A DNA stretch of 64,000 nucleotides from Sphingomonas sp. (GCF_036388215.1 NZ_DASVSH010000031.1:90675-154674), one strand, 5' to 3'. Positions 50,810-64,000 are shown, numbered from the stretch's first letter. The notes: generated by a model not told the origin, from the sequence alone. Numbers and translations are program-made.

Positions 50810-53800
50810 CTAGAACTTCACTTCCGCGGACACCGTGAACGAACGTCCGCGCGGATCGGCAACGCGGGGTTCCCAGGAGCCGCCCGAACCCGAGTTGCTG
50901 TCATAGGTGATCGCGAAGGGGGGATCGGTGTCGAAGATGTTCCTGACGCCTGCCGTCAGCGACAACCGGTTGTCGATCCGCTGCGAAATCGTCGCATTGT
51001 AGATCATGTAGGGCTTAACGCGCGGATTGAAGTCCGGTCGTGCGGCGCTGGCCGGCAGCGTCTGGTTGGCGTAGCCGCTGCGGTAGATTTGCGAGAAGCT
51101 CAGCCCGAAATCGCCATTAGTGTAGGTGACAAAGGCATTATGCTTCCACTCGAGGCCGAGATCGCCCAGCAGCGTAAACTTGCCGACGAGGTTCGTGTAC
51201 GGCAGGTTCGGCAACAGCTTTTCACGCTTGTCGAGCAGATAGGTGCCGTCCAGCCCAAAGCCGATCACCCCTCCCAGGGCCTCGAACCCGCCGCGCGCGA
51301 CGAACTCAAGTCCTTTCGTCCGCCGCGAGCCGAAGTTGCCAGTCCGCAGATCGACCAGCGTGATGATGCCGTTGGTCCTTTGGATGCGGTCCCCGAACGA
51401 TGAGATGTTCGCAAATAGCTGCGGAATGGTAATCGCGCTGATGGTGTTATCGACCCCGATGTTCCAATAATCGACCGACAGGCTGAAGCGGCGTGCCGGC
51501 TGGAATACGACGCCTACGCTATATTGCTTCGAAGTCTCCGGCCCTAGCGTCAGATTGCCGCCGCTGATGGAATCAGGAGTGATCGCCGCGCAGCCGGGCT
51601 GCGGACCCGCCGTCGTCCCTTGCGGGCAGGTTGTGGGATCGACCAGGGTATTGCCCGGGTTGACCAGCCGCACTTGGCCGTTGAAAATCTGGTTGAATGT
51701 CGGAACACGGAAACCAGTGTTGTACGAGGCGCGGAACATCAGCCAGTCGGCCGGCCGGAACTTGGCGGTTACCTTCGGATTGACGGTCGAACCGAACCCG
51801 GAATAATCGTCTACGCGCCCGGCGACGGTCACTTCGAGCGAACTCAGAATCGGGATCAGTACCTCGGCATAGGCCGCCTTCACGTCGCGGTTGACCTCCG
51901 GCAGCGCGAACGCATTGTCGAACGGCGCGTTGAAGATCGATGGCGACACGAGCGCGCCGGGCGAGCCCGCATCGAACTTGTAGCTTTCGCGCCGGTAATC
52001 GACCCCGACTGCCATTTTAACGTCACCGGCCGGCAAGCCGAACAGGCTGCCCGAAATCGAGGCGTCGAATTGCTTGACCTCGTACTGGCCACCGTAAAGC
52101 GTGACGCCGTCCGCCGACACGGATTGAAGAGCCGCGAGGGCCGCGGGCGTCTGGGCCAGGGAAAAGGGATTGAGGATGCCGCTGTTGAACAGGCCGACGA
52201 TGCCGGGCGCCGTCGCGCCGGCCCCGGTCGGCGCGCGCGGATCGGCCTGGCCGATCACCGGTACGGGTTGGCCCGCCACCGTCGCGTTCGCGGTCTGCGT
52301 GGAGTTCGTATAGACACCGGTGTAGTGATAGCCTGAGCCTAGCGTACTGTCGGACTTGCTGCGCGCATAGGACGCGCCCGCTTGGTAATCCCAGCCATCG
52401 AACAGCGGGCCATCGACTCCGAGCGCCACACGAAACGTCCTGGTGTCGGTCACCAGCGAACGCTCGCCGCAGTCGAGGCAGCGGTAGCGGTATGCGATCG
52501 GTTTGCCGTAATTGCCGACCGCATCGACCGTACGATCACCGACCGCGCCAACCGCGGGAAGCACGGCGGCGATGCGATCGTACACTTGGTTGTAAGTCGG
52601 CGCGGTCAGCGCATTGAGCGGATAAGCGATAGGCAATGACGTGCCGTTGCCGGTATATTGATTGTTGGAAAATGCCTTGCGCGCCGTCGCGTCCGAACCG
52701 GTGACTTCGACAAAAACTTCGTGAGCGCCACCAAGCCGGACCGTACCGCGCGCATAATAGGTCAGCGTCTCCAGCGGCTGCTGAAGCGTCGCGGCACGCG
52801 CCGTGTCCCACGAACAGGCCAGCGCCGCCCCCGGCACCGCCCACAAAACCGAGTCATAGTTCATGCCGCCATCGACCGACGCACAGCCGGCGCCGCCCGG
52901 CAGCCGCAGCGGGTTGACGCCGCCGTTGGCAGCCTGCGTCGTACCCGGTATGAAAAACGCCGGATTGGGGGTCGTGGTGCCCGGCAGGACGGCCAGATTC
53001 GTCGCGCCGGTCGTCCCGCCCAGCAACGTGCCGGTCTGCGCGATGCCGATGCCCGCACCCGTCGGGTTCAATTGCTGCGCCGTCGCGATCGGCGTACCGC
53101 GGGTGTCGATCGACAGGCCACGATTGGGCTGATTGCCATTCACGAAGTCGCGGTCGCGGCCGAACAGTATGCCGTTCCAGCTCTTGCTGACTGCGCCCAT
53201 CACGTTGAAGCCGTCCTCGGCCAGGTCGCCGTAGCCGGCGGTCGCGGACAGGCGGTAGATCGGGCTGTCGCCCTGCTCTGTAATGTCGGTAAAGCCGTTA
53301 AGCGTAAGCCCCTGAAAGTTGGTCTTGGTGATGAAGTTGATCACGCCGCCGATCGCGTCCGTGCCATAGATTGCCGAAGCACCGTCCTTGAGCACCTCGA
53401 TGCGGTCGATCGCGGCGAACGGGATCTGGTTGACATCGACTGCCGAGCCGCCTTGGCCGTGTGACGAAACGCGGCGGCCGTTGAGCAGGACGAGCGTCGC
53501 CGACGAGCCCTGTCCGCGCAGGTTCGCGGCCGACAGGCCGTTCTTGCCACGCGAATCAGCGCCGACCACGTCCGAGTTCGAAGAGAGATTGTCGTTGCCG
53601 GTTCCGTTGCTCGACAGGAAGCTGATGAGCTGTTCGGGGCTGCTGATCCCCTCCCGCGTCAGCTCCTGGTTTGTGATGATCTGCAGGGGCAGCGCCGAGT
53701 TGTTCGGGTCCTGCTTGATGCGCGATCCGGTGACGAGAATCTGGGCGCCGCCATCGGCGCCCTGATCGGCATCGCTCGTCGGCGTCTCCGCGGTGGTCGG

Positions 53801-53920
53801 CGTCGTCGCCGGCTGCGTGGTGCCTTCGGTGGAGACCTGCGCGACCGCAGGCAGCGCGCCTGCGAGCGCGGCGAAAGCCGTTCCCGAAGCGAGAATCAGT
53901 TTGAGCGACGAAGCAGCCAT
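50810..53920 (-). CDS. TonB-dependent outer-membrane receptor (1036 aa)
   Basis: Signal peptide, ILVTGSRI TonB box, TLVLLNGRR, IDRIEVLKDGASAIYGTDAIGGVINFIT, DPRGR...VKF C-terminus. Confidence 0.96.
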   Translation of the reverse strand: MAASSLKLILASGTAFAALAGALPAVAQVSTEGTTQPATTPTTAETPTSDADQGADGGAQILVTGSRIKQDPNNSALPLQIITNQELTREGISSPEQLISFLSSNGTGNDNLSSNSDVVGADSRGKNGLSAANLRGQGSSATLVLLNGRRVSSHGQGGSAVDVNQIPFAAIDRIEVLKDGASAIYGTDAIGGVINFITKTNFQGLTLNGFTDITEQGDSPIYRLSATAGYGDLAEDGFNVMGAVSKSWNGILFGRDRDFVNGNQPNRGLSIDTRGTPIATAQQLNPTGAGIGIAQTGTLLGGTTGATNLAVLPGTTTPNPAFFIPGTTQAANGGVNPLRLPGGAGCASVDGGMNYDSVLWAVPGAALACSWDTARAATLQQPLETLTYYARGTVRLGGAHEVFVEVTGSDATARKAFSNNQYTGNGTSLPIAYPLNALTAPTYNQVYDRIAAVLPAVGAVGDRTVDAVGNYGKPIAYRYRCLDCGERSLVTDTRTFRVALGVDGPLFDGWDYQAGASYARSKSDSTLGSGYHYTGVYTNSTQTANATVAGQPVPVIGQADPRAPTGAGATAPGIVGLFNSGILNPFSLAQTPAALAALQSVSADGVTLYGGQYEVKQFDASISGSLFGLPAGDVKMAVGVDYRRESYKFDAGSPGALVSPSIFNAPFDNAFALPEVNRDVKAAYAEVLIPILSSLEVTVAGRVDDYSGFGSTVNPKVTAKFRPADWLMFRASYNTGFRVPTFNQIFNGQVRLVNPGNTLVDPTTCPQGTTAGPQPGCAAITPDSISGGNLTLGPETSKQYSVGVVFQPARRFSLSVDYWNIGVDNTISAITIPQLFANISSFGDRIQRTNGIITLVDLRTGNFGSRRTKGLEFVARGGFEALGGVIGFGLDGTYLLDKREKLLPNLPYTNLVGKFTLLGDLGLEWKHNAFVTYTNGDFGLSFSQIYRSGYANQTLPASAARPDFNPRVKPYMIYNATISQRIDNRLSLTAGVRNIFDTDPPFAITYDSNSGSGGSWEPRVADPRGRSFTVSAEVKF

Positions 53921-54165
53921 TGGTTTTCCCCCTGAGCGCGCAGATTCCGGCAGCGCAGACCGGCACATTAAGTAACAAAGATGTGGCACCGCACCATAGT
54001 ATCTTTTCGGAAATCCATAACCCCCGGGCATTGCGGCGCTCACTCTTCCGCGCAAGCGTTGCCCGGCGGCAACAGTCGCGCGCTTATTGACTTTGCCTCG
54101 CCCTTTCCGGACTCATCGTCGGGTCAGGAGAGACTTTTCGATGCACCGCGACAGGACCATTCCGC

Positions 54166-55731
54166 TTGGCTGATCCCCACGACGCGGTGCCCCCGCCCGC
54201 AATCCCGCCCGGCGCCGGGCGCATGGCGCTCTATGTCCTGCTGGGCTTCTCCGCCGGCCTTCCCTTCTACATGTTTTCCACGGTGCTCAGCGTGCGGCTT
54301 GCCGAGCACGGCGTGGTGCTCGCGGTCATCGGCTTCTTCGCCTGGGTGCAATTGCTGCCCACCTTCAAGTTCCTCTGGGCGCCATTCCTCGACAAATATG
54401 ACGTGCCCGGCTTCGCGCGCTTCTGGGGCAAGCGCCGCGGCTGGATCATGCTGTCGCAGCTCGGCATATTCACTTCGATGCTGGCGATGGCGCTGACCTC
54501 GTCAGACGCCAATCTCTGGCTTACCGCATTGTTCGCGGTGCTGCTCGCCTTCTGGACCACCACGCTCGAAGTCGCCGCCGACGCTTGGCGCATTGAACTT
54601 GCACCCACGCCGCAAGAGCAAGGCCCCGTCGCCGCCTCGAACCTGTGGGGATACCGCACAGCGATGGTGGCGGCAGGAAGCGGCGCGCTGCTCTTCGCCG
54701 ATCCCGCCGGCAGCATCGGCCCCGCATTGTTCGGTCTCGGCATCACGCCGGGCTGGATTTCATCGTATCTGCTGATCGCCGCCGGCGCTTTCATTCCGCT
54801 TCCCATCCTTGCGCTGCTTCCCAGGCAGCCCGGCTGCACCGGCAATCGCTGGTCTGCGCTCGCCGCCGGTCTGGGCGCGAGCGCGCTCATGCTGCTGGCA
54901 GTCCTCGCCGGCACGGCTGCGCTCGGCTGGCTCCTGCTCACTGCCGCGGCCCGCATCGGCATCACTGCCGACACCAATGTGCTGCCCTGGGTGCTCGGGA
55001 TCGCAATGGCGCCCTTCGTCGTCCTGGCCTTCGCGCTCCCCTGGATTCGCGATGCGAAGCCCGACGATCCGATCCGGGCGTCCACTGCGATCGGCCCCTA
55101 TGCCGATTTCTTCTGGCGCTATGGCTTCCTCGCCATCGTGTTGCTCGCCTTCGTCTCGATCTACCGGATGGGCGACGTGCTGGCGCTCAACCTCTCCAAG
55201 CCGATGATCCTCGACCTTGGCTACACCAAGAGCCAGATCGGCTGGGCGGACGGCGCGGTCGCGCTTATGGCGAGCATCATCGGCGTAGGGATAGGCGGCT
55301 TCATGGTCACCAAGTGGCGCTGGGGCGTCACGCTCACCGTGGGCGCGATCTTTGCGGCGATCGGCAATTTCGGCTTCGTCTGGCTGGCGCACATGCCGGT
55401 GAACCAGAACACGCTCTATGTCGCCACCGCCGCCGATCAGTTCGGCAATGGCATGGCCGGTGCGGTGTTCGTGGTCTACCTGTCGATGCTCTGCAATCCG
55501 CGCTTTCCCGGCGCGCAATATGCGTTCCTCTCCGGCTTCGCCTTCCTGCTCTCGCGCCTCCTGGCGGGGGCTGGAGGGTCCATCGTCAGCAAGCTGGACC
55601 AGGCCGGCTATAACGGCTTCGACATGTTCTTCTATTTCTCGGGTGCGATCAGCCTGGGAGCGCTGCTGTTCCTCCCGCTCCTGACAAACGCAAAGCCGCG
55701 CCCGGATGACCGCGAGCCTGTAGTCGCGTGA
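54166..55731 (+). CDS. ampG: AmpG-family MFS muropeptide permease (variant)
   Basis: LGFSAGLPF, KFLWAP.LD, GKRRGW, GYR, YRMGD, RFPGAQYAFLS; extra central TM hairpin. Confidence 0.85.
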   Translation: MADPHDAVPPPAIPPGAGRMALYVLLGFSAGLPFYMFSTVLSVRLAEHGVVLAVIGFFAWVQLLPTFKFLWAPFLDKYDVPGFARFWGKRRGWIMLSQLGIFTSMLAMALTSSDANLWLTALFAVLLAFWTTTLEVAADAWRIELAPTPQEQGPVAASNLWGYRTAMVAAGSGALLFADPAGSIGPALFGLGITPGWISSYLLIAAGAFIPLPILALLPRQPGCTGNRWSALAAGLGASALMLLAVLAGTAALGWLLLTAAARIGITADTNVLPWVLGIAMAPFVVLAFALPWIRDAKPDDPIRASTAIGPYADFFWRYGFLAIVLLAFVSIYRMGDVLALNLSKPMILDLGYTKSQIGWADGAVALMASIIGVGIGGFMVTKWRWGVTLTVGAIFAAIGNFGFVWLAHMPVNQNTLYVATAADQFGNGMAGAVFVVYLSMLCNPRFPGAQYAFLSGFAFLLSRLLAGAGGSIVSKLDQAGYNGFDMFFYFSGAISLGALLFLPLLTNAKPRPDDREPVVA

Positions 55732-56735
55732 TCGATCAGGCCTTCGCCCCCGCCGCTACCGCAATCGCCCAAGGCGGCATTCCCGGCGCGGTGCTTGGAG
55801 TCGTCACCGCCTCCGGCGAGCGCTGGACCACGCATGCCGGCCTCGCCCAGCGTGTCCCCCATCCCGAGCCGCTCACCGCCGATCACTGGTTCGACCTCGC
55901 CTCGGTATCCAAGGTCATCTTCACCACCACCGCGATCCTCCAGCTAGCCGAGCAAGGCAGAGTGGACCTCGACCGCCCGATCACCGATGCGATCCCGGAC
56001 CTCCGCCAATATGATGTAGCCAACGCCGCCGAGCGCAAGCTCACCTTCCGCGACTGCCTGGCCCACCGTACTTTCCTCCCCGCGGTGGAGCCGATCTACA
56101 CCTATGGCGACGATCCCCGGCGCCTGCGCGCCTTCGTCCTCCAGCGCGAATGGAAGCACGGTCCGCCGGTCTACTCCGACATCAACTTCATCCTGCTCGG
56201 CATCGCGATCGAGCGCATCACCGGCGCGCCGCTCGCCGCATGGCCGCTGGGCGCAGGTCTCGGCTTCGGCCCGCCCCCCGGCCCCGCCGTCGCCACCGAA
56301 TTCTGCCACTGGCGCGGCCGTGTGCTCAAGGGCGAAGTGCATGACGAGAATTGCGCGGCCCTGGGCGGCCAGGCCGGTCATGCCGGGCTGTTCGGCACGG
56401 TCGCCGGTGTCCTAGATTTCGCACAGGGGCTGCTGGACGGAAGCGGAGCCTCCCCCTTTATGCTTTCAGCAATCCGCGCAATCCAGCACGAGCACCGCAC
56501 CTGCGGCTGGGAGCGCAAATTCCCCGGCTGGTCGGGCGGTCAGGCCTGTTCGGACGACACGATCGGCCATACCGGCTTCACCGGCACCGGCCTCTGGGTC
56601 GATTTAGGGCGCGGGATCGCCTGGACGCTGCTAACCAACCGCGTCCACCCCACCCGCCATTTCGACAGCGGCATATCGGCGCTACGCCCCGCAACTGGTG
56701 ATGCTGTGATCGCGGCCTGGGGTTCGCTCTCATGA
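55728..56735 (+). CDS. Class C beta-lactamase-family serine hydrolase, AmiE/YbbE-like amidase candidate
   Basis: FDLASVSK (SxxK), YSDINF, GEVHDEN, GHAGLFG, GHTGFTGT, LLTNRVHP; no signal peptide; GTGA overlap with ampG. Confidence 0.85.
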   Translation: MIDQAFAPAATAIAQGGIPGAVLGVVTASGERWTTHAGLAQRVPHPEPLTADHWFDLASVSKVIFTTTAILQLAEQGRVDLDRPITDAIPDLRQYDVANAAERKLTFRDCLAHRTFLPAVEPIYTYGDDPRRLRAFVLQREWKHGPPVYSDINFILLGIAIERITGAPLAAWPLGAGLGFGPPPGPAVATEFCHWRGRVLKGEVHDENCAALGGQAGHAGLFGTVAGVLDFAQGLLDGSGASPFMLSAIRAIQHEHRTCGWERKFPGWSGGQACSDDTIGHTGFTGTGLWVDLGRGIAWTLLTNRVHPTRHFDSGISALRPATGDAVIAAWGSLS

Positions 56736-56758
56736 TCGGCGGAATCCAAACTCTAACT

Positions 56759-56841
56759 CCGCTCACCCTGAGCCTGTCGAAGGGTCGTCAGCCACAGTCG
56801 CATCGCTCTCGAATGTCCTTCGACAAGCTCAGGATGAGCGG
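56759..56841. repeat. Family-A REP pair
   Basis: CCGCTCACCCTGAGCCTGTCGAAGG ... CCTTCGACAAGCTCAGGATGAGCGG. Confidence 0.92.
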
Positions 56842-56859
56842 AAAAAACATGGAGTCCCT

Positions 56860-58050
56860 ATGATCTCGTTGCTCGCACTCACCCTCGCCCTCGCTCCGCT
56901 TGCAGACGACCCCACCCCCGCGGATCGCCTGGCGCACGATCACATGCTCACGCTCGACAGCCACCTCGATACCCCCGAGCTGTTCGAGCACCCGGGCTGG
57001 GAGTTCGATCGCTGGCACGATCGCGATTTCGACAAGAGCCAGGTCGATATCCCGCGCATGGAGCAGGGCGGGCTCGATGGCGGCTTCTTCGTGATCTATA
57101 CCAGCCAGGGGGAGCTGACTCCGCAGGGATATGCCAAAGCCCGCAACGGCGCTTTGACCCGCGCGAATTGGATCCAGCGCGTCGTCGCGGCGCATCCCGA
57201 CAAGCTCGCGATGGCGACCACCGTTGCCGACGCCGCACGCATCGCGAAAACGGGCAAACGCATCGTCTATCAGAGCATCGAGAACAGCTATCCGCTCGGC
57301 GAGGATATCAGCCTGCTCGCTTATTTTCACGGCCTTGGCGTTCGCATGGTCGGCCCCGTGCATTTCCGGAACAACCAGTTCGCCGACAGCTCCACCGATA
57401 AGGTCAAGGCTTTTGGCGGCTTCTCGCCCCTCGGCAGGCAATGGCTGGCCGAGATGAACCGCCTCGGCATGGTCGTGGATCTCAGCCATGCGTCCGACGA
57501 CACTTTCGATCAGGCGCTGGCGCTCTCCAAAACTCCGATCATCCTCTCGCACTCGGGTCCCAAGGCGATCTTCGACCACCCGCGCAATGTGGACGACGAT
57601 CGCATGCGCAAGCTGGCCAGGGCCGGCGGTGTCATGCAGATCAACAGCGTCTATCTGGTCGCCGGTGACAGCAACAAGGCGCGCGACGCCGTGCAGGACC
57701 GCCAGAACGACTGGTGGGCGCTGTCCGAAGCCGAGCAACGCAAGCTGATCGCCGACAAGGCGGTGGCTGACGCCACCGATCCCTATGCCGGCGCGGACTT
57801 CGAGCTCTTCATGAAGAGCCTCCTCCACGCCATCGCGGTGATGGGCGTGGACCATGTCGGCATCGGCGCGGATTGGGACGGCGGCGGCGGGGTGCGCGGG
57901 ATGGAGGATGTTACCGCGCTGCCCAGGATCACCGCCCGGCTGCGCAAGGAAGGCTTCAGGGATTCGGATATCGAGAAGATCTGGAGCGGCAACGTCCTGC
58001 GCGTGCTGAAGGCCGCCGAGGATTGGGCAGCGAAGAACGGCGGGAAGTAA
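56860..58050 (+). CDS. Secreted M19 (renal/membrane) dipeptidase
   Basis: Signal peptide, DSHLD, SIENS, HFRNN, EMNRLGMVVDLSH, LSHS, HPRNVDD, HVGIGADWDG. Confidence 0.93.
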   Translation: MISLLALTLALAPLADDPTPADRLAHDHMLTLDSHLDTPELFEHPGWEFDRWHDRDFDKSQVDIPRMEQGGLDGGFFVIYTSQGELTPQGYAKARNGALTRANWIQRVVAAHPDKLAMATTVADAARIAKTGKRIVYQSIENSYPLGEDISLLAYFHGLGVRMVGPVHFRNNQFADSSTDKVKAFGGFSPLGRQWLAEMNRLGMVVDLSHASDDTFDQALALSKTPIILSHSGPKAIFDHPRNVDDDRMRKLARAGGVMQINSVYLVAGDSNKARDAVQDRQNDWWALSEAEQRKLIADKAVADATDPYAGADFELFMKSLLHAIAVMGVDHVGIGADWDGGGGVRGMEDVTALPRITARLRKEGFRDSDIEKIWSGNVLRVLKAAEDWAAKNGGK

Positions 58051-58056
58051 CCCGCG

Positions 58057-58220
58057 TTCTCCCTCTCCCATCCGGAAAGGGTTGCGCAGACTTGGGTCTG
58101 CTCCTTCAGCAGACCCTGGTCGTAGCTGGGTGAGGGGTGTCGCCCCCTCAATAAGCGAACCCCTCACCCAATCTCCGCTAGGCGCTAAAGTGCCAAGCCG
58201 CGCTATCCCTCTGGGGCAGG
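58057..58220. repeat. Family-B modular palindromic element
   Basis: Reverse copy of the ..AAGTCTGCGCAACCCT arm joined to a CTAGGC..GCCAAG arm. Confidence 0.8.
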
Positions 58221-58226
58221 TTTGCC

Positions 58227-58338
58227 CCTTGCAATGTAGGATTTCGCCTGCTTGGCTGAGCCGGTCGACACTGCCGTCCGCTCTTTGAATTGTCGTTTCC
58301 GAAGCCCATGGCCAGTGCGAACATTCAGAACATTCGCG
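58227..58338. repeat. Dispersed ~113-bp non-coding element, copy 2
   Basis: About 89% identical to 26209-26321. Confidence 0.9.
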
Positions 58339-58387
58339 CCGGGCAAAACAAGCGCGATAGTGTGACCCTAGTGTGACCTTTCGCGCG

Positions 58388-59818
58388 TCAATTCGCCGCC
58401 GCGATCACGATCAGCGCGGCATCCATGAATTTGGTCGCCGATCCGCTCGCGGGCATGTCATTGGCATAGAATGCAAAGACCAGCGTCTTCCCGCTCGCGG
58501 CAATCATATACCCCGCCAGCGCATTGGTCGCGTTAAGCGTGCCGGTCTTGGCGAAGACCTTGCCCTCCAGCGGCGTGCCCTTGAAGCGGTTGCGCAGCGT
58601 GCCGTCCACCCCGCCGATCGGCAGCGTCTCGCGCCACTGTGCACCCCAGGACTGGCCTGAGATCCAGCGCAGCATCTGCACCACGCCGCGCGGGCTCACG
58701 CGATTGTAGCTCGACATGCCCGATCCGTCGGACAAGTCCCATGCGGTGCGCGCCACGCCCGCCTTGGCGAGCATCGCCTCCACTTCGGTCATGCCGTCGG
58801 CGATCGATCCGCTGCCCTTTAGCAGTGATACGCGGCGGAGTGTCAGTTCCGCGTGGAGGTTCTGGCTGATCTTGTTGATCACCTTCAAATCCTCGGCCAG
58901 CGGCGCCGGCGTGAGCCTGGCGAGGACCGGCACGTCGCTCGAACCCGCGAACGGGCCCTCGCGCCGTGCGGGATCGTCGCCGGGCATCAGCGTTCGGTGA
59001 AAGGTGCGCACCTGCCCCTTCACCTTGACGCCGCGCTCCTCGAGCAGTGTCTTGAACCGCCAGGCCGCAAAGTGCGCAGGATCGTCGATCCCCATGCGGG
59101 AAATGTCCGGCTTGGCCTCCTTGCCGATCGTCCCGGTGACTCGGACGACGCGCTCGAACGGCAGCCGGTCATAGCCGATCCTGGTTTCCGCGCCCTCGAC
59201 CGTCAACGTCAGATTGTCGACCGTGTAGTAAGTCGAGCCCAGCGTGACCTTGCCCGCCTTGCCCGGTTCTCCGGGGGCCACGACCAACTCGACCTCATTG
59301 TCGTCGGCCGTAAGCGCAGACACGCCGGTGCCCGAGCGGGTCGGGATGTTGTTCCAGCTCATGCCCGGGCTCCAGCGCTCGTCGGGCATGCGCGTGTCAT
59401 CGCCGATCACATCCCTCACCCGCTTGGTCTTCGCGGCCACGGCATCCGCCAGCGCGGCCAGGCAATCGACCTTGCAGTCGCCAGCGGACGACATCCGGGC
59501 ATCGCCATTGCCGATCAGCACCACGTCGCGGCCGTCGATACGCACTGCGTTGCCGCCCGCCTCGTCCGGCGCGTTGACGTCGGGCATCGTCGCGAAGGCG
59601 ACCGCTGTTGAGAACATCTTGGTGTTGGAGGCCGGGATATAGCGCCCGTAGGGATCGATCGCGACGATCTCCGTCCCGTCCTCGCTCGCGACCATCAGTC
59701 CGAAGCGCGTGCCCGGCGCGGCCTCGGCCAGCTTGGCGCGAACCTGCGCGCGAAGGTCCTGCGCGGCGGCCGGCGTTGCGGCGGCCAGCGCCAGCACGAG
59801 GAGGAATGCATGTCTCAT
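58388..59818 (-). CDS. dacB: D-Ala-D-Ala carboxypeptidase/endopeptidase (PBP4, peptidase S13)
   Basis: PASNTK (SxxK), GNGDA, SQNLHAE (SxN), DGSGMS, GTLRNRF, AKTGTL (KTG); signal peptide. Confidence 0.95.
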   Translation of the reverse strand: MRHAFLLVLALAAATPAAAQDLRAQVRAKLAEAAPGTRFGLMVASEDGTEIVAIDPYGRYIPASNTKMFSTAVAFATMPDVNAPDEAGGNAVRIDGRDVVLIGNGDARMSSAGDCKVDCLAALADAVAAKTKRVRDVIGDDTRMPDERWSPGMSWNNIPTRSGTGVSALTADDNEVELVVAPGEPGKAGKVTLGSTYYTVDNLTLTVEGAETRIGYDRLPFERVVRVTGTIGKEAKPDISRMGIDDPAHFAAWRFKTLLEERGVKVKGQVRTFHRTLMPGDDPARREGPFAGSSDVPVLARLTPAPLAEDLKVINKISQNLHAELTLRRVSLLKGSGSIADGMTEVEAMLAKAGVARTAWDLSDGSGMSSYNRVSPRGVVQMLRWISGQSWGAQWRETLPIGGVDGTLRNRFKGTPLEGKVFAKTGTLNATNALAGYMIAASGKTLVFAFYANDMPASGSATKFMDAALIVIAAAN

Positions 59819-59893
59819 CCAAACGAGCCTAGCCGTAACGAACCCGGCGGCAAGCGCGCGATGCGCCACGCGGCCACAACCGCCGCCTATCCA

Positions 59894-60526
59894 TTAGCGT
59901 TGCGGACCGATCAGCCAGGGCTTCACTCGGGCGCTCGGCTTGGCAACGCCGTCCAGCCGCACCGCGCGGATCAGCTTGACGGGCTTCAGGATCATCTGGC
60001 CCTTCATCGCGTCGCGCCCGCCCCCGGTGGGCAGCGCGAGGATCCGGCGAACCACGTCCATCCCGGCGATCACGCGCCCGAATGCCGCGAAGCCACGATT
60101 GCCCGGCCGCGCATCGAGCCCCGGATTGGGGCCCACCATGATCGAGAAATTGGCGTTGGCCGCATTCTCGTTGGGGCCATGCGCCATCGATACGGTCCCG
60201 TCGAGGTGCTTGATCCCCGTCTGGCTGGTCGGCTCCAGCACTAGGGGCGGCAGCATCCGCCGCGCATCGGTGCCTATCCCGCCCTGGATAAAGCCGAAGC
60301 GCGGATCGGCCTTGCGCCGGGTCGCGCGGTAGAATTCGGTTCCGTCGAGCCGCCCGTCATCGACATAGGCCAGGAAATTGGCGGCCGTCTTGGGCGCCCG
60401 CTTGGCATCGAGCGCGAGCACGATGTTGCCGGCTGAGGTTTCCAGCCGAACACGGATGATACCGGAGCTTTGTGGCGCGCTATTTGCCAGCGTGAACAGC
60501 GCGAGAATCAGGACAAGGAAACGCAT
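59894..60526 (-). CDS. Secreted cyclophilin-type peptidyl-prolyl isomerase
   Basis: Signal peptide, LETSAG, APKTAANFLAYVD, FYRA, FIQGG, GFAAFGRVIAGMDVV. Confidence 0.9.
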   Translation of the reverse strand: MRFLVLILALFTLANSAPQSSGIIRVRLETSAGNIVLALDAKRAPKTAANFLAYVDDGRLDGTEFYRATRRKADPRFGFIQGGIGTDARRMLPPLVLEPTSQTGIKHLDGTVSMAHGPNENAANANFSIMVGPNPGLDARPGNRGFAAFGRVIAGMDVVRRILALPTGGGRDAMKGQMILKPVKLIRAVRLDGVAKPSARVKPWLIGPQR

Positions 60527-60535
60527 GGGTCGCGT

Positions 60536-61780
60536 TTAGTCGTCGTCGGCTGAACAATATATGGCTTCGTCCAATTCGCCTTCCCACCGAGCGACGGTGG
60601 TAGCGACAGTCAGATTGGCGCTGGCGCTCGGCACCGTGCGCGTCATGTCGAGCAGCCGGTCGAACGGGAGCACGAAGCCTACGACCAGCGCAGTCTGCTC
60701 GGGCGCGACGCCGACCGCGGACAGCACAGCGGCAAGCATGAACAGCGAGGCGGAGGGGACGGGCGCGGTCCCGAACGCCGCCAGCGCGCCGGTCAGCAGC
60801 ACGATCCCGTAAACCTGGGGAGACAGCGGGACGCCGAACGCCTGCAGCGCGAACATGCTGAGCAGCCCGACATACATCGCCGTGCCGTCCTTGCCGATGC
60901 TCGCCCCCAGCGGCAGCACCGTTGAAAATACCGGCCGGCCGATCCCGAGATTCTTCTCGGCCACACGCATCGCCACCGGCAGCGTCGCCGAGCTGGATGC
61001 AGTGGAAAACGCGACCGCCAGCGCGTCCACGATGCCGCGGAAGAAAGGCAGGATAGGCAACTTGGCGAACAATCGCAGGATCAGGCTGTGGACCAGCACG
61101 ATCTGGATCAAAGAGCCCAGCACCACGGCCAGGGCCAGCCAGCCGACATTGACGAACACCGCCGCGCCGTTCGCCGCCACCGCGTTGGCGATCAGCGCGA
61201 ACACGCCGAACGGCGTCGCCTCCATGACGATGCCAACCACCTTGAGCAGCACCGCGGACAGCGACTGCAGCCCCGCCGCGAACGGCTTGCCCGCCTCCCC
61301 CGCCACCACCGTGCCGACGCCAACCAGGATCGCGACAAAGATCAAAGCAAGCATGTCGCCCTTGGCAAGCGCATCGACGATATTGAGTGGGATGATGCCG
61401 ATCAGCTGCTGGTACGGTGTCACCGCCTCGCCCAGCGCATGCGGCGCGGCGGTGCCCAGCGGCGCGCCCACCCCCGGCTGGACCAGAGTCGCCACCAGCA
61501 TCCCGATCGAGACCGCGATCGCGGTCGTAAAGGCGAACAGCCCGATCGTCCGGCCGCCCAGGCTCCCCAGCCGCTTGGGATCGGCCAGCGCGGTAATCCC
61601 GGACGCGATCGTCACCAGCACGATCGGCGCCACGAGCATCCGTATTGCCCGCACGAACAGGTCGCCCATGAACATCACCGAAGGCGTGGCGGAGGGCCAG
61701 ACCAAGGCGAAGATCAATCCCAGCGCCAGCGCGGCCAGCACGCGTTTCCACAGCGCGATCGCGAACCACGCTCTCAGCAT
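60536..61780 (-). CDS. Dicarboxylate/amino acid:cation (DAACS) symporter
   Basis: AFSTASSSATLP, LPLGASIGKDG, GTAPVP, FDRLLDMTRT. Confidence 0.93.
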   Translation of the reverse strand: MLRAWFAIALWKRVLAALALGLIFALVWPSATPSVMFMGDLFVRAIRMLVAPIVLVTIASGITALADPKRLGSLGGRTIGLFAFTTAIAVSIGMLVATLVQPGVGAPLGTAAPHALGEAVTPYQQLIGIIPLNIVDALAKGDMLALIFVAILVGVGTVVAGEAGKPFAAGLQSLSAVLLKVVGIVMEATPFGVFALIANAVAANGAAVFVNVGWLALAVVLGSLIQIVLVHSLILRLFAKLPILPFFRGIVDALAVAFSTASSSATLPVAMRVAEKNLGIGRPVFSTVLPLGASIGKDGTAMYVGLLSMFALQAFGVPLSPQVYGIVLLTGALAAFGTAPVPSASLFMLAAVLSAVGVAPEQTALVVGFVLPFDRLLDMTRTVPSASANLTVATTVARWEGELDEAIYCSADDD

Positions 61781-61786
61781 GACGCT

Positions 61787-61939
61787 CTCCCCTCCCTCCT
61801 TGCAGGGAGGGGTCGGGGGTGGGTGCGCGCGTCTGCGCGCTCCAAAGACTCTATACCCCCGCGGCGTAAGCACCGGTCGAGGCATCGAGCCTCGCCCGCC
61901 GCTAACCCACCCCTGGCCACTCCCTTAAAAGGGAGGGGA
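61787..61939. repeat. Long palindromic element with family-B-type terminal hairpins
   Basis: CCCTCC..GGAGGGG and CTCCC-TTAAAA-GGGAG hairpins at the ends; GGGGGTGGGT / ACCCACCCC inverted arms. Confidence 0.8.
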
Positions 61940-61961
61940 AGCACATGCAGCACACTCAGCA

Positions 61962-63512
61962 TCAGCGGCAACTCCCCGTCGGCTTGTGCGGCAGCGCGCG
62001 GCCCGCCGCCTTGCCGGTCATCTCGCCGTTGCTCACTGCGACCACGCCGTTGACAACGACGGTCCGCACGCCGGAGGCCGGCAGCTTGGCCTGCTCATAC
62101 GTCGCCTGGGCGGCATATGTCTTGGGATCGAACACCACTACATCGGCGAAGGCGCCTTCCGTCAGTCGCCCGCGTCCCTTCAGCCCGAAGGTGTCGGCAG
62201 TAAGCGTCGAGCTGCGATAGATGAATTGGCGCAAGCTAAGCACATGCTCCGCTTTCACATACTTCGCGTATTTCCGCGCAAAGCTGCCATAGACGCGCGG
62301 GTGGCCGCCCGACGCATCCGAGCCGGTCATCACCCAGGGCCGCGCCATGAACGCCTTGATATCCGCCTCGCTCTGGTTGAACGAAACGACCCCCGGATCG
62401 GCAACCTTGATCACTTCCATCGCGGCGGTGACGGCGTCCACGCCCCGATCCTTCGCCACGGCGGCGAGCGTGCGGTTGGCGTACAGCCCCTCGACGATCA
62501 ACAGCTTCTCCGCACCACCGCGCTTGCGCAGATTCTCGATAATTCCGGCGCGCAGATCTTCGGCCCGGGCATAGGGGCCCAGCCGCTGAAGCAGCTTCTC
62601 GCGCCCGCCATCCTGCGCCCATAACGGGATCAGCGCGGCCACCAGGCTCGTGCCCGATGCAGACCAGGGATATTGGTCGGCCGTCACTTTCTGGCCCGTG
62701 CGCCGCGCCGCCTCTACCTTCGCGATGATCGCGCCCGCCTGACCGTGCACATCGACGCCCAGCGCCTTGATATGGCTGATATGCGCCGGAAGCTGGCCCT
62801 CGCGCCCTATCCGGATCGCCTCGTCGATCGCAGCGGCCAGCCCGACCGTGTATGAGCTTTCGTCGCGAATATGGCTGTCATAGGTGCCACCACGTTTCCC
62901 CGCCTCGCGCGCCAGCTCGATCACTTCCTCCGTTTTCGCGAAGCTTTGCGGCGCATAGAAGAGCCCCGTCGAGAGCCCCAGCGCGCCATGACACATGGCG
63001 TTCGCGACCAGACCCTTCATCTGGGCCATTTCCGTCACGGTGGGCGCGCGGTCAGCCTCGCCGATCACTTTCTCGCGGATCGCGCCGAAGCCTACATATG
63101 CCGCATAGTTGATGCCCACCGATTGGCCGCTGCCCAGCACCCTGGCCATGTCCGGACTCCCACCGCCGTCATTGCCGATGAACGCGGTCGTCACGCCTTG
63201 CATCAGAAATGCGGGCACCAGCCTTTCGCCCCGGTCCTTGGACGCAAGATCGGAGCCCATATGCGTGTGCGGATCGATGAAGCCGGGCGCGACGATCATG
63301 CCTTTTGCCTCGATCACGCGCGTGGCGCGAACGTTGACGCGGCGGCCGACCGAGACGATCCGGTCGCCCCGTATCGCAACGTCGCCGACGAAGGGCGCCA
63401 TCGTCCCCGTGTAGACCGTCCCTCCCCGGATCAGCAGATCGACGCTTGGCAACGGGGCATTTGCGGCGCCCAGCGACAATGCGGCGGTTCCCAGAAGCAG
63501 CGCAACCTTCAT
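61962..63512 (-). CDS. Secreted N-acyl-D-amino-acid deacylase-like amidohydrolase
   Basis: Signal peptide, APGFIDPHTH, GVTT...GNDG, DSHIRDE, HISHIK, GSDA, HPRVYGSF.R, GAFADVVVFDP. Confidence 0.9.
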   Translation of the reverse strand: MKVALLLGTAALSLGAANAPLPSVDLLIRGGTVYTGTMAPFVGDVAIRGDRIVSVGRRVNVRATRVIEAKGMIVAPGFIDPHTHMGSDLASKDRGERLVPAFLMQGVTTAFIGNDGGGSPDMARVLGSGQSVGINYAAYVGFGAIREKVIGEADRAPTVTEMAQMKGLVANAMCHGALGLSTGLFYAPQSFAKTEEVIELAREAGKRGGTYDSHIRDESSYTVGLAAAIDEAIRIGREGQLPAHISHIKALGVDVHGQAGAIIAKVEAARRTGQKVTADQYPWSASGTSLVAALIPLWAQDGGREKLLQRLGPYARAEDLRAGIIENLRKRGGAEKLLIVEGLYANRTLAAVAKDRGVDAVTAAMEVIKVADPGVVSFNQSEADIKAFMARPWVMTGSDASGGHPRVYGSFARKYAKYVKAEHVLSLRQFIYRSSTLTADTFGLKGRGRLTEGAFADVVVFDPKTYAAQATYEQAKLPASGVRTVVVNGVVAVSNGEMTGKAAGRALPHKPTGSCR

Positions 63513-64000
63513 GGCCTTCCCCAAAAGCCGCGCGCGGGCGGCAGGAGCATCCCGCCTTCGTCCCGCACGCCGCCCGCGCGATCCTCCGCGAGCCAGATGG
63601 GGCCGTCAAGGTCCACGAAGTCCGACATGCGCGCGACATGCAGCGCAGCCGCGATCGAGAGTGAGGAGCTGACCATGCAGCCGGTCATCAGCCCCAGCCC
63701 CCGCGCACGGGTGGCGTGGGCCAGTTCCAGCCCGGCGGTAAGCCCGCCCGCCTTGTCGAGCTTCACGTTGACCACCTGATAGCGACTGGCGATGACGTCG
63801 AGGTCGGCCGCGACATGCACTGCTTCATCCGCACAGATCGGCACGGCGGGGGTGAATCCTTCCAGCCAATCGTCCTCGGTGGCGGAAACCGGCTGCTCGA
63901 GCAGATCGGTCCGCAGTTCGACGAGCAGCGGCTCGATCTCCCTGAGCAGCGCCTCGTCCCAGCTCTCGTTGGGATCGACGATCAGCCGGCAATCAGGCGC
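63509..64000 (-). CDS. Enolase-superfamily L-Ala-D/L-Glu epimerase / N-acetyl-D-Glu racemase (DgcA-like), 5'-truncated
   Basis: VDPNESW, LEQP, CADE metal ligands, NVKLDKAGGL, GCM, VDLDG; ATGA overlap with the deacylase; frame open to window end. Confidence 0.9.
   Translation of the reverse strand, partial: APDCRLIVDPNESWDEALLREIEPLLVELRTDLLEQPVSATEDDWLEGFTPAVPICADEAVHVAADLDVIASRYQVVNVKLDKAGGLTAGLELAHATRARGLGLMTGCMVSSSLSIAAALHVARMSDFVDLDGPIWLAEDRAGGVRDEGGMLLPPARGFWGRP

Follow-up and report, generated by a model that had tools for sequence, protein, structure and literature searches.

A Sphingomonas gene cluster around dgcN and dgcA is a candidate locus for scavenging extracellular peptidoglycan fragments

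The window analyzed here is a 64,000-nucleotide stretch of Sphingomonas sp. (GCF_036388215.1, NZ_DASVSH010000031.1:90675-154674), part of contig C31 of a 3.27 Mb genome with 65% G+C whose nearest named relatives are Sphingomonas species. Its right-hand end holds a series of nine genes that the original prediction described as a candidate locus for the use of peptidoglycan peptides and D-amino acids. An open reading frame (ORF) listing, together with Pfam and NCBIfam scans, confirmed the nine genes at their coordinates and in their families, with refinements described below. The locus had also been expected to run past the window edge, and a further 20 kb of contig sequence past that edge revealed the remainder of dgcA followed by dgcN, a gene for a LysR regulator and a gene for a second S12 hydrolase, SerHyd2 (dgcA to SerHyd2, C31:154183-158334). 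The whole unit extends from approximately 50810 to 67660 in window coordinates (Table 1).

The minus-strand genes are ordered LysR, dgcN, dgcA, D-aminoacylase, DAACS (sodium:dicarboxylate symporter family), cyclophilin and dacB. Two junctions in this series overlap, with the D-aminoacylase gene overlapping the dgcA stop by 16 nt, and two have gaps of 9–24 nt. The gap between LysR and dgcN (~69 nt) contains a conserved LysR box and that between D-aminoacylase and DAACS (~181 nt) a repeat element. The dacB-to-dgcA series is convergent with a series encoding an AmpG-like permease, an S12 hydrolase (SerHyd1) and an M19 dipeptidase, from which the gene for a TonB-dependent receptor (TBDT) is divergent. 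Signal-like N-termini were found in DacB, cyclophilin, D-aminoacylase, M19 and SerHyd2, and in none of SerHyd1, DgcA and DgcN; the secretion that had been proposed for M19, cyclophilin and D-aminoacylase fits these sequences.

Table 1. Features of the unit in window coordinates; positions above 64,000 lie past the window edge.
Feature	Coordinates	Strand	Supporting detail
TonB-dependent receptor (TBDT), ~1036 aa, signal peptide MAASSLKLILASGTAFAALAGALPAVAQ	50810-53920	-	plug + barrel domains
Divergent TBDT/AmpG-like promoter region	53921-54165		conserved element facing TBDT
Diverged AmpG-family MFS permease, 521 aa	54166-55731	+	TIGR00901
SerHyd1, cytoplasmic S12 (beta-lactamase-fold) serine hydrolase	55728-56735	+	PF00144, 122.5 bits
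M19 (renal-type) membrane dipeptidase, probably exported	56860-58050	+	PF01244, 2RAG
DacB/PBP4-type DD-carboxypeptidase/endopeptidase, signal peptide	58388-59818/59869 (start approximate)	-	TIGR00666
Cyclophilin-type peptidyl-prolyl isomerase, exported	59894-60526	-	PF00160, 88.8 bits
DAACS transporter	60536-61780/61885 (start approximate)	-	PF00375, 329.5 bits
D-aminoacylase-family amidohydrolase, signal peptide	61962-63524	-	1M7J, 3GIP
dgcA, C-terminal 163 codons inside window	63509-64000 (gene extends to ~64498)	-	NF042940
dgcN	~64456-65490	-	NF041892
LysR box	65524-65566		41 bits on weight matrix
LysR regulator	65560-66446	-	HTH_1 + LysR_substrate domains
SerHyd2, second S12 hydrolase, exported, divergent from LysR	66500-67660	+	

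The gene truncated by the window edge had been described as Ala-Glu epimerase/DgcA-like. The full-length protein scored 422.8 bits on the DgcA model NF042940 (cut-off 400) and 312.2 bits on the YcjG model NF011708, under its cut-off of 343. A YcjG-type L-Ala-D/L-Glu epimerase was therefore ruled out, and based on these scores the gene is assigned to DgcA, the predicted N-acetyl-D-Glu racemase. An adjacent dgcN (DUF1611) gene, whose presence had been proposed as a check, was found. Its product scored 494.1 bits on the equivalog model NF041892 (cut-off 480) and has both DUF1611 domains, PF07755 and PF17396. A second clade of DgcN-like genes, at 46–51% identity, was observed in many Sphingomonadaceae (G165, G157, G114, G175, G186 and others in our numbering); G165 had seven DgcN-type matches, six of them in this clade, with several matches reading through an internal stop codon. 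These second-clade genes may act on other D-amino acids.

The D-aminoacylase matched the PDB entries 1M7J (8e-63) and 3GIP, an N-acyl-D-Glu deacylase (1e-53), and scored 171 bits on NF006560 against a cut-off of 340. Approximately 20 extra N-terminal residues form its signal peptide, which is retained in orthologues, and its mobile domain is ~35 aa longer in this protein. The DctA and GltP models scored the DAACS protein well under their cut-offs, and we consider this transporter a candidate D-Glu importer.

The ORF of the TBDT spans 50810-54055 on the minus strand, and alignment to orthologues placed the true start at ~53920; a terminator-like hairpin lies beyond the end of the gene at 50756-50742. 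The locus had been called PUL-like, after the polysaccharide utilization loci (PULs) of Bacteroidetes. As an analogy in logic this stands, but the receptor is not of the SusC class (28.7 bits on the SusC/RagA model TIGR04056, cut-off 368) and domain scans of the locus proteins identified no SusD family match. DacB scored 181.2 bits on TIGR00666 (cut-off 107.8) and 227 bits on PF02113.

The M19 family prefers L-Xaa-D-Xaa dipeptides, and the M19 protein of the locus is a full-length match to it (PF01244, 313.7 bits; 2RAG, 4.8e-134; 3ID7 (Sco3058), 9.6e-44). Among DgcN loci this gene is kept only in the nearest relatives (L014–L016), with more distant M19 genes near DgcN or DgcA in genomes G019 and G003. 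M19 was tried as a synteny anchor in 40 relatives and dropped in favor of DgcN, as it proved patchy and only the nearest relative kept the neighbors. An M19 paralogue is present at C17:197007-198068. Palindromic repeats occur around M19 and before DAACS (56764-56841, 58040-58200 and 61790-61830) and recur throughout the genome, with 83 copies of CCCTCCC-N-GGGAGGG, 13 of CACCCTGAGCCTGTCGAAGGG and 6 of the partner arm of the latter. Similar repeat elements were seen in the related loci L031 and L040, and the repeats may mark the insertion site of M19.

The AmpG-like permease scored 333.7 bits on TIGR00901, just under the cut-off of 350, and is only 26% identical to the canonical AmpG of the same genome (418.1 bits). 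It has an extra hydrophobic insert of ~65 aa and reads LEVAADA at the position of the AmpG motif QDIxxDA. Its description as AmpG-like thus stood at the level of family, but these features indicate a diverged relative and not a typical AmpG family member. The GTG start of SerHyd1 overlaps the stop of the permease gene by 4 nt, an overlap also kept in L015, L017, L036, L096 and L097, and an S12 hydrolase gene was adjacent to the AmpG-like gene in every locus checked, including that of S. cannabina, where the pair lies away from the dgc genes and still has the 4-nt overlap. In two loci (L046 and L057) the hydrolase gene is beside a NagK–MurQ pair.

SerHyd1 is at least 80% identical to proteins across many Sphingomonas that carry generic names only, and it and its orthologues are without a signal peptide. 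It had been predicted to be an AmiE-like hydrolase. Its catalytic motifs (S59-V-S-K, Y149-S-D and H281-T-G) are intact, but an identity with AmiE was not established. The best named model was PBP4B (YfeW) at 79.5 bits, far under its cut-off of 385, and the PDB matches were weak and to S12 D-peptidases. The AmiE-like label is drawn from the weak PBP4B match and from a suggestive context.

Conservation of the neighborhood, another proposed check, proved to be strong. A search with DgcN gave 80 loci, all in named genomes, in which we then looked for matches to the proteins of the studied locus. The flank taken was 10 kb, and the far end of a locus was often missing from it. Within this range, DgcA was found in 75 of the 80, LysR in 69, D-aminoacylase in 58, DAACS in 43 (usually directly after DgcA or D-aminoacylase), DacB in 37, the S12 hydrolase in 28, the AmpG-like permease in 20, M19 in 5 and cyclophilin in 2. 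A recurring set of LysR, DgcN, DgcA, D-aminoacylase, DAACS, DacB and, in some, AmpG-like plus S12 hydrolase survives rearrangements and is kept in different orders in Sphingomonas, Allosphingosinicella, Sphingosinicella, Sphingopyxis and Altererythrobacter. For instance, dgcN, dgcA, DAACS, AmpG-like, S12 and DacB are all on one strand in the Sphingopyxis loci L055 and L064, and L065 has the same order. L015, from Sphingomonas soli NBRC 100801, shares the arrangement of the studied locus. In a sample of 151 Sphingomonadaceae genomes, mostly one per genus, the S12 hydrolase was present in 13, a DgcN orthologue (at least 57% identity) in 19 and both in 10, and in nine of these ten genomes the two were no more than 20 kb apart (Fisher p = 1.8e-8 for co-occurrence, uncorrected for shared ancestry).

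The receptor is part of this pattern. Of 20 genomes that contributed DgcN loci, six have a close TBDT orthologue (at least 58% identity), which in five lies immediately past the AmpG-like gene at that end of the locus and in the sixth (L020) ~3 kb past the fetched end. In the family sample, orthologues of 58–67% identity were beside DacB in L098–L100, where the 20 kb fetched (within ~10 kb of TBDT/DacB) contained no dgc gene, and inside full loci in L104 and L105. Altogether, close orthologues were beside DacB, AmpG-like or dgc genes in 11 of the 13 genomes examined. Homologues of ~50% identity had unrelated neighbors (PQQ (pyrroloquinoline quinone) dehydrogenase, MFS and OprB genes) and were left out as evidence. 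A related TBDT cluster occurs in 29 of the 80 DgcN loci, often divergently paired with a gene of the S45 penicillin-amidase family. Elsewhere in this genome, a region at C17:130566-144373 encodes a TBDT (28% identical to that of the locus), a member of the S45 penicillin-amidase family and an M16 peptidase, an arrangement similar to the TBDT/S45 pair found with dgcNA in other sphingomonads.

Based on the recurrence in the DgcN loci, the co-occurrence of S12 hydrolase with DgcN, and the adjacency of the TBDT, the cluster appears not to be a chance neighborhood. It is very unlikely, in our judgment, that a D-Glu operon and a housekeeping dacB simply came to lie beside an AmpG-like/S12 pair and a TBDT of other specificity. 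Such an arrangement would be in keeping with the poor synteny obtained within the genus when M19 was the anchor, with the location of the AmpG-like/S12 pair elsewhere in S. cannabina and G018, and with the unrelated contexts of the more distant TBDT homologues. Against it are the recurrence of the same set through several gene orders and genera, the co-occurrence statistic, the conserved position of the receptor, and the LysR boxes shared in relatives that are described below.

On its left, next to the TBDT, the unit is bordered by genes for DUF188 and a DEAD-box helicase, and on its right, after SerHyd2, by unrelated genes (ComF-like, methyltransferase, AccA and XerD). A 353-aa plus-strand ORF follows SerHyd2 at 68144-69205. 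This ORF is probably spurious, since minus-strand ORFs at 67785-68213, 68210-69034 and 69031-69288 have better third-position G+C and codon bias.

A conserved box, CATAAC-N5-GCTATGG-N15-CTATGC, precedes dgcN, in the spacer between LysR and dgcN, in 47 loci. We scored it with a position weight matrix (PWM) that was trained on 38 other loci. The box of the studied locus is the single strong site in the genome, at 41 bits against 19.8 bits for the runner-up. In related loci, matches were also found in the TBDT/S45 intergenic region (at least 15 loci, 12–26 bits), the AmpG/NagK region (L046 and L057, ~15 bits) and the AmpG/TBDT region (L044, 9.8 bits). Chance alone would give ~5 matches above 9 bits over all 80 loci. 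These matches indicate that the receptor and the permease are predicted members of the LysR regulon in many relatives. As the box is shared before the TBDT and AmpG/NagK–MurQ genes in those relatives, the whole set is predicted to form one regulon.

The TBDT/AmpG-like spacer could be aligned in the studied locus and in L021, L032, L034 and L044. It contains an element ATGnC-N5-GTTATGG-N15-CTATGG, oriented to face the TBDT, that is conserved in all five and has the same architecture as the LysR box of the dgcN promoter. On the PWM this element scored 9.8 bits in L044, 6.1 bits in L032 and ~0 in L021 and L034. A separate perfect palindrome, ATAGG-N7-CCTAT, lies over the LysR start codon at 66441-66460 (C31:157115-157134), past the window edge. 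This palindrome belongs to the 53-nt spacer between the divergent LysR and SerHyd2 genes. Its conservation is limited to the two nearest relatives (L014 and L015), and it may be an autoregulatory site.

The tie of the cluster to peptidoglycan is strengthened by gene content in related loci. MurQ acts solely on N-acetylmuramic acid (MurNAc)-6-phosphate, a sugar peculiar to peptidoglycan. Seven related loci contain a BadF-family NagK/MurK-like kinase, MurQ or both, and one also contains NagA. MurQ scored 325 bits on NF003915 (cut-off 168) and NagA 281 bits (cut-off 226), and the best model of the kinase was NagK. In L046 and L057 the kinase–MurQ pair is divergent from the AmpG-like gene. The presence of these genes ties the cluster to muramic acid and hence, we infer, to peptidoglycan itself. 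The kinase belongs to the same Pfam family as the MurNAc kinase MurK of Tannerella (PMC5790795).

In Rhodanobacter-type loci (L074, L083, L084 and L076) we observed DgcN flanked by gamma-glutamyltransferase (GGT), LysA, and S12 and S58 (DmpA-type) peptidases, along with the glutamate symporter GltS and other TBDT families. LysA, diaminopimelate decarboxylase, scored 464 bits on TIGR01048 (cut-off 298). This set fits a predicted cleavage of the gamma-D-Glu–meso-diaminopimelate (mDAP) bond with use of both products, and appears to be a gammaproteobacterial variation on this theme, built from other genes.

An alternative is that the substrates are other D-amino-acid peptides, such as poly-gamma-glutamate, non-ribosomal peptides or cyanobacterial toxins, or N-acyl-D-amino acids generally. 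The most widely conserved core, which is just LysR, DgcN, DgcA, D-aminoacylase and DAACS, would suit such substrates, as would the similarity of the D-aminoacylase to a broad-range enzyme and the GGT, S45, S9 and S58 neighbors elsewhere, whose specificity is broad or unknown. However, DacB, an AmpG-family permease, MurQ/NagK/NagA and LysA are tied to constituents of peptidoglycan and recur in the loci, and we regard this alternative as improbable.

The genome has other genes of peptidoglycan recycling away from the locus: the canonical AmpG (C30:253374-254741), an Amidase_2/AmpD-like gene (C31:8560-8946) and a NagZ-sized GH3 gene (C11:11895-12698). Of the genes for which searches had been proposed, nagZ thus has a NagZ-like GH3 counterpart that is not adjacent to the locus, and anmK is absent from this genome. 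Since AmpG, an AmpD-like amidase and a NagZ-like enzyme are all encoded elsewhere, the locus would be additional to recycling and its permease an extra one, which supports the earlier view of a role beyond self-recycling. MurQ, a NagK/BadF-type kinase and NagA were likewise not detected in this genome, which seems to be without an evident route for MurNAc or anhydro-MurNAc (AmgK and MurU were not searched for). The lack of this branch suggests that the version of the locus in this genome is peptide-centered.

These observations bear on whether the cluster handles the products of the cell's own peptidoglycan turnover, as an outlet for D-Glu and D-Ala peptides, with a TBDT that recaptures leaked material or has an unrelated substrate. 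In favor of this role, the classical function of AmpG-family permeases is recycling, the genome has no PBP4 other than DacB, and the TBDT promoter of the studied locus is without a strong LysR box. Moreover, as AnmK and MurQ are lacking, turnover peptides might be burnt and not rebuilt. Nevertheless, the genome already has the recycling genes named above, the locus is present in a minority of Sphingomonadaceae (13–19 of 151), unlike a housekeeping function, the adjacency of the TBDT is conserved, and the TBDT promoter in relatives bears the dgc LysR box. On balance, we consider endogenous turnover an unlikely role for the cluster.

Together, these data lead us to favor, with a probability of roughly 0.6, a catabolic locus that scavenges extracellular peptidoglycan fragments and is built around the known DgcN–DgcA pathway of D-glutamate. 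The locus is well supported as a unit, and its function is predicted from sequence. The TBDT would carry muropeptides or stem peptides from the walls of other bacteria across the outer membrane. In the periplasm, DacB/PBP4 would trim terminal D-Ala and open D-Ala–mDAP cross-links, M19 would split L-Xaa-D-Xaa dipeptides and the D-aminoacylase-family enzyme would free D-Glu from N-acyl- or aminoacyl-D-Glu, roles that follow what is known of these families. The D-Glu would then be imported by the DAACS symporter, and larger fragments by the diverged AmpG-like permease for the translationally coupled cytoplasmic S12 hydrolase, which may be an amidase that releases MurNAc or a D-peptidase. In the cytoplasm, DgcN is predicted from its curated equivalog model to acetylate D-Glu, and DgcA to racemize N-acetyl-D-Glu to N-acetyl-L-Glu, which would enter L-Glu or arginine metabolism. 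The LysR regulator would drive the dgc operon from the observed conserved box. In this genome the peptide part would be harvested, without the MurNAc branch.

Several observations weigh against this scavenging function. A strong LysR box was not found at the TBDT/AmpG-like promoter of the studied locus, where no register scored above -6.9 bits on the PWM; given an element of similar layout but no PWM-scoring site, we do not claim a shared LysR operator there. In S. cannabina and G018 the AmpG-like/S12 pair is separate from the dgc genes. DacB is single-copy and may simply be a housekeeping enzyme. With MurQ, NagK, NagA and AnmK lacking from the genome, an imported sugar moiety would have no evident fate, and an enzyme for the gamma-D-Glu–mDAP bond is not evident in the locus, although the GGT, S45 or S9 enzymes of relatives could cleave it. 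The D-aminoacylase is slightly nearer to the broad-range Alcaligenes enzyme (1M7J) than to the D-Glu-specific enzyme Bb3285 (3GIP). The residue that selects D-Glu is Arg295 of Bb3285 (PMC12149444), and the use of this residue to assign D-Glu specificity was dropped because the selecting position fell outside the alignment. M19, being poorly conserved, is an accessory member of the locus and not part of its core. The cyclophilin, kept in the nearest relatives only and with a paralogue elsewhere in the window, is probably a passenger or a folding helper. It also has no link to D-configured or cell-wall substrates, to which the earlier description had tied nearly all genes of the locus.

A broader proposal is an undescribed peptidoglycan utilization regulon of Sphingomonadales under one LysR (DgcR-like) regulator, in which a TBDT importer of muropeptides or stem peptides and an AmpG-like/S12 amidase pair that replaces AmpD (feeding MurK–MurQ where present) are joined to DgcN–DgcA. 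We put this proposal forward tentatively, as it may well not hold in full. If correct, the TBDT would be the first shown importer of muropeptides or stem peptides in Proteobacteria, and there would be a defined genetic route by which the debris of bacterial cell walls is turned over in soil and water.

In soil and sea, a large share of organic nitrogen and carbon is stored in peptidoglycan and its D-amino acids, which are degraded slowly, and the genes with which ordinary heterotrophs take up and dismantle wall fragments are poorly defined outside self-recycling. The locus provides a concrete and testable gene set, including an outer-membrane receptor, in common environmental bacteria, and would trace the recently found DgcN–DgcA pathway back to the substrate that it probably uses in nature. 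The locus also highlights two uncharacterized proteins that lend themselves to assays, namely a permease that has diverged from AmpG and the S12 hydrolase paired with it, which is strongly conserved, and the conserved LysR box offers a handle for defining the regulon.

No description of this gene combination was found in the literature searched. The closest part of it to a known system is the DgcR–DgcN–DgcA pathway of D-glutamate catabolism in Pseudoalteromonas sp. CF6-2 (Yu et al. 2023, ISME J 17:537), as described in papers that cite it (PMC12363236, PMC10845958). As far as those descriptions go, the predicted chemistry is the same (D-Glu to N-acetyl-D-Glu to N-acetyl-L-Glu), and the studied locus has dgcN and dgcA adjacent and overlapping, both over their equivalog cut-offs, with a regulator beside them. 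In the Sphingomonas locus, however, the pair is embedded with a TBDT, an exported D-aminoacylase, DacB, M19, DAACS and the AmpG-like/S12 pair, whereas the Pseudoalteromonas pathway, in the form in which it is cited, concerns free D-Glu and not the uptake and dismantling of wall fragments.

The AmpG–AmpD–NagZ recycling pathway (e.g., Caulobacter, PMC13046382) resembles the studied locus, which likewise has an AmpG-family permease followed by a cytoplasmic hydrolase and also contains a DD-peptidase. Here, by contrast, the permease is a diverged paralogue with the canonical AmpG elsewhere and is paired with an S12 serine hydrolase in place of the zinc amidase AmpD, the predicted output is catabolism (D-Glu to L-Glu) and not resynthesis, and the TBDT implies an outside source. 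The MurT–MurK–MurQ operon for MurNAc scavenging in Tannerella forsythia (PMC5790795) also deals with outside wall material, and a BadF kinase and MurQ are divergent from the AmpG-like gene in relatives of the studied locus. The genome under study is without MurQ and the kinase, the transporter families differ, and the D-Glu branch is absent from the Tannerella operon. In Bacillus subtilis, murQ-murP-amiE-nagZ is a muropeptide rescue operon. By analogy with AmiE, the role of MurNAc-peptide amidase may fall to a beta-lactamase-fold enzyme in the Sphingomonas locus, but the Bacillus operon has no D-Glu branch and its transporter families differ.

RagAB is a TonB-dependent importer of peptides. 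With other TBDT loci (Bacteroidetes PULs and the N-acetylglucosamine clusters of Caulobacter and Xanthomonas; PMC4173781, PMC13046382) the studied locus shares the combination of a TBDT, periplasmic hydrolases, an inner-membrane transporter, cytoplasmic enzymes and a local regulator; it differs in having no SusD-like partner and in its proposed substrate, a D-amino-acid peptide or muropeptide and not a glycan. Thus DgcN–DgcA, AmpG recycling, MurK–MurQ scavenging and TBDT-centered nutrient loci are already known, and what is new here is the diverged AmpG-like/S12 pair, the conserved link between DacB and the TBDT, the occurrence of MurQ, NagK and NagA in relatives, and the shared LysR box.

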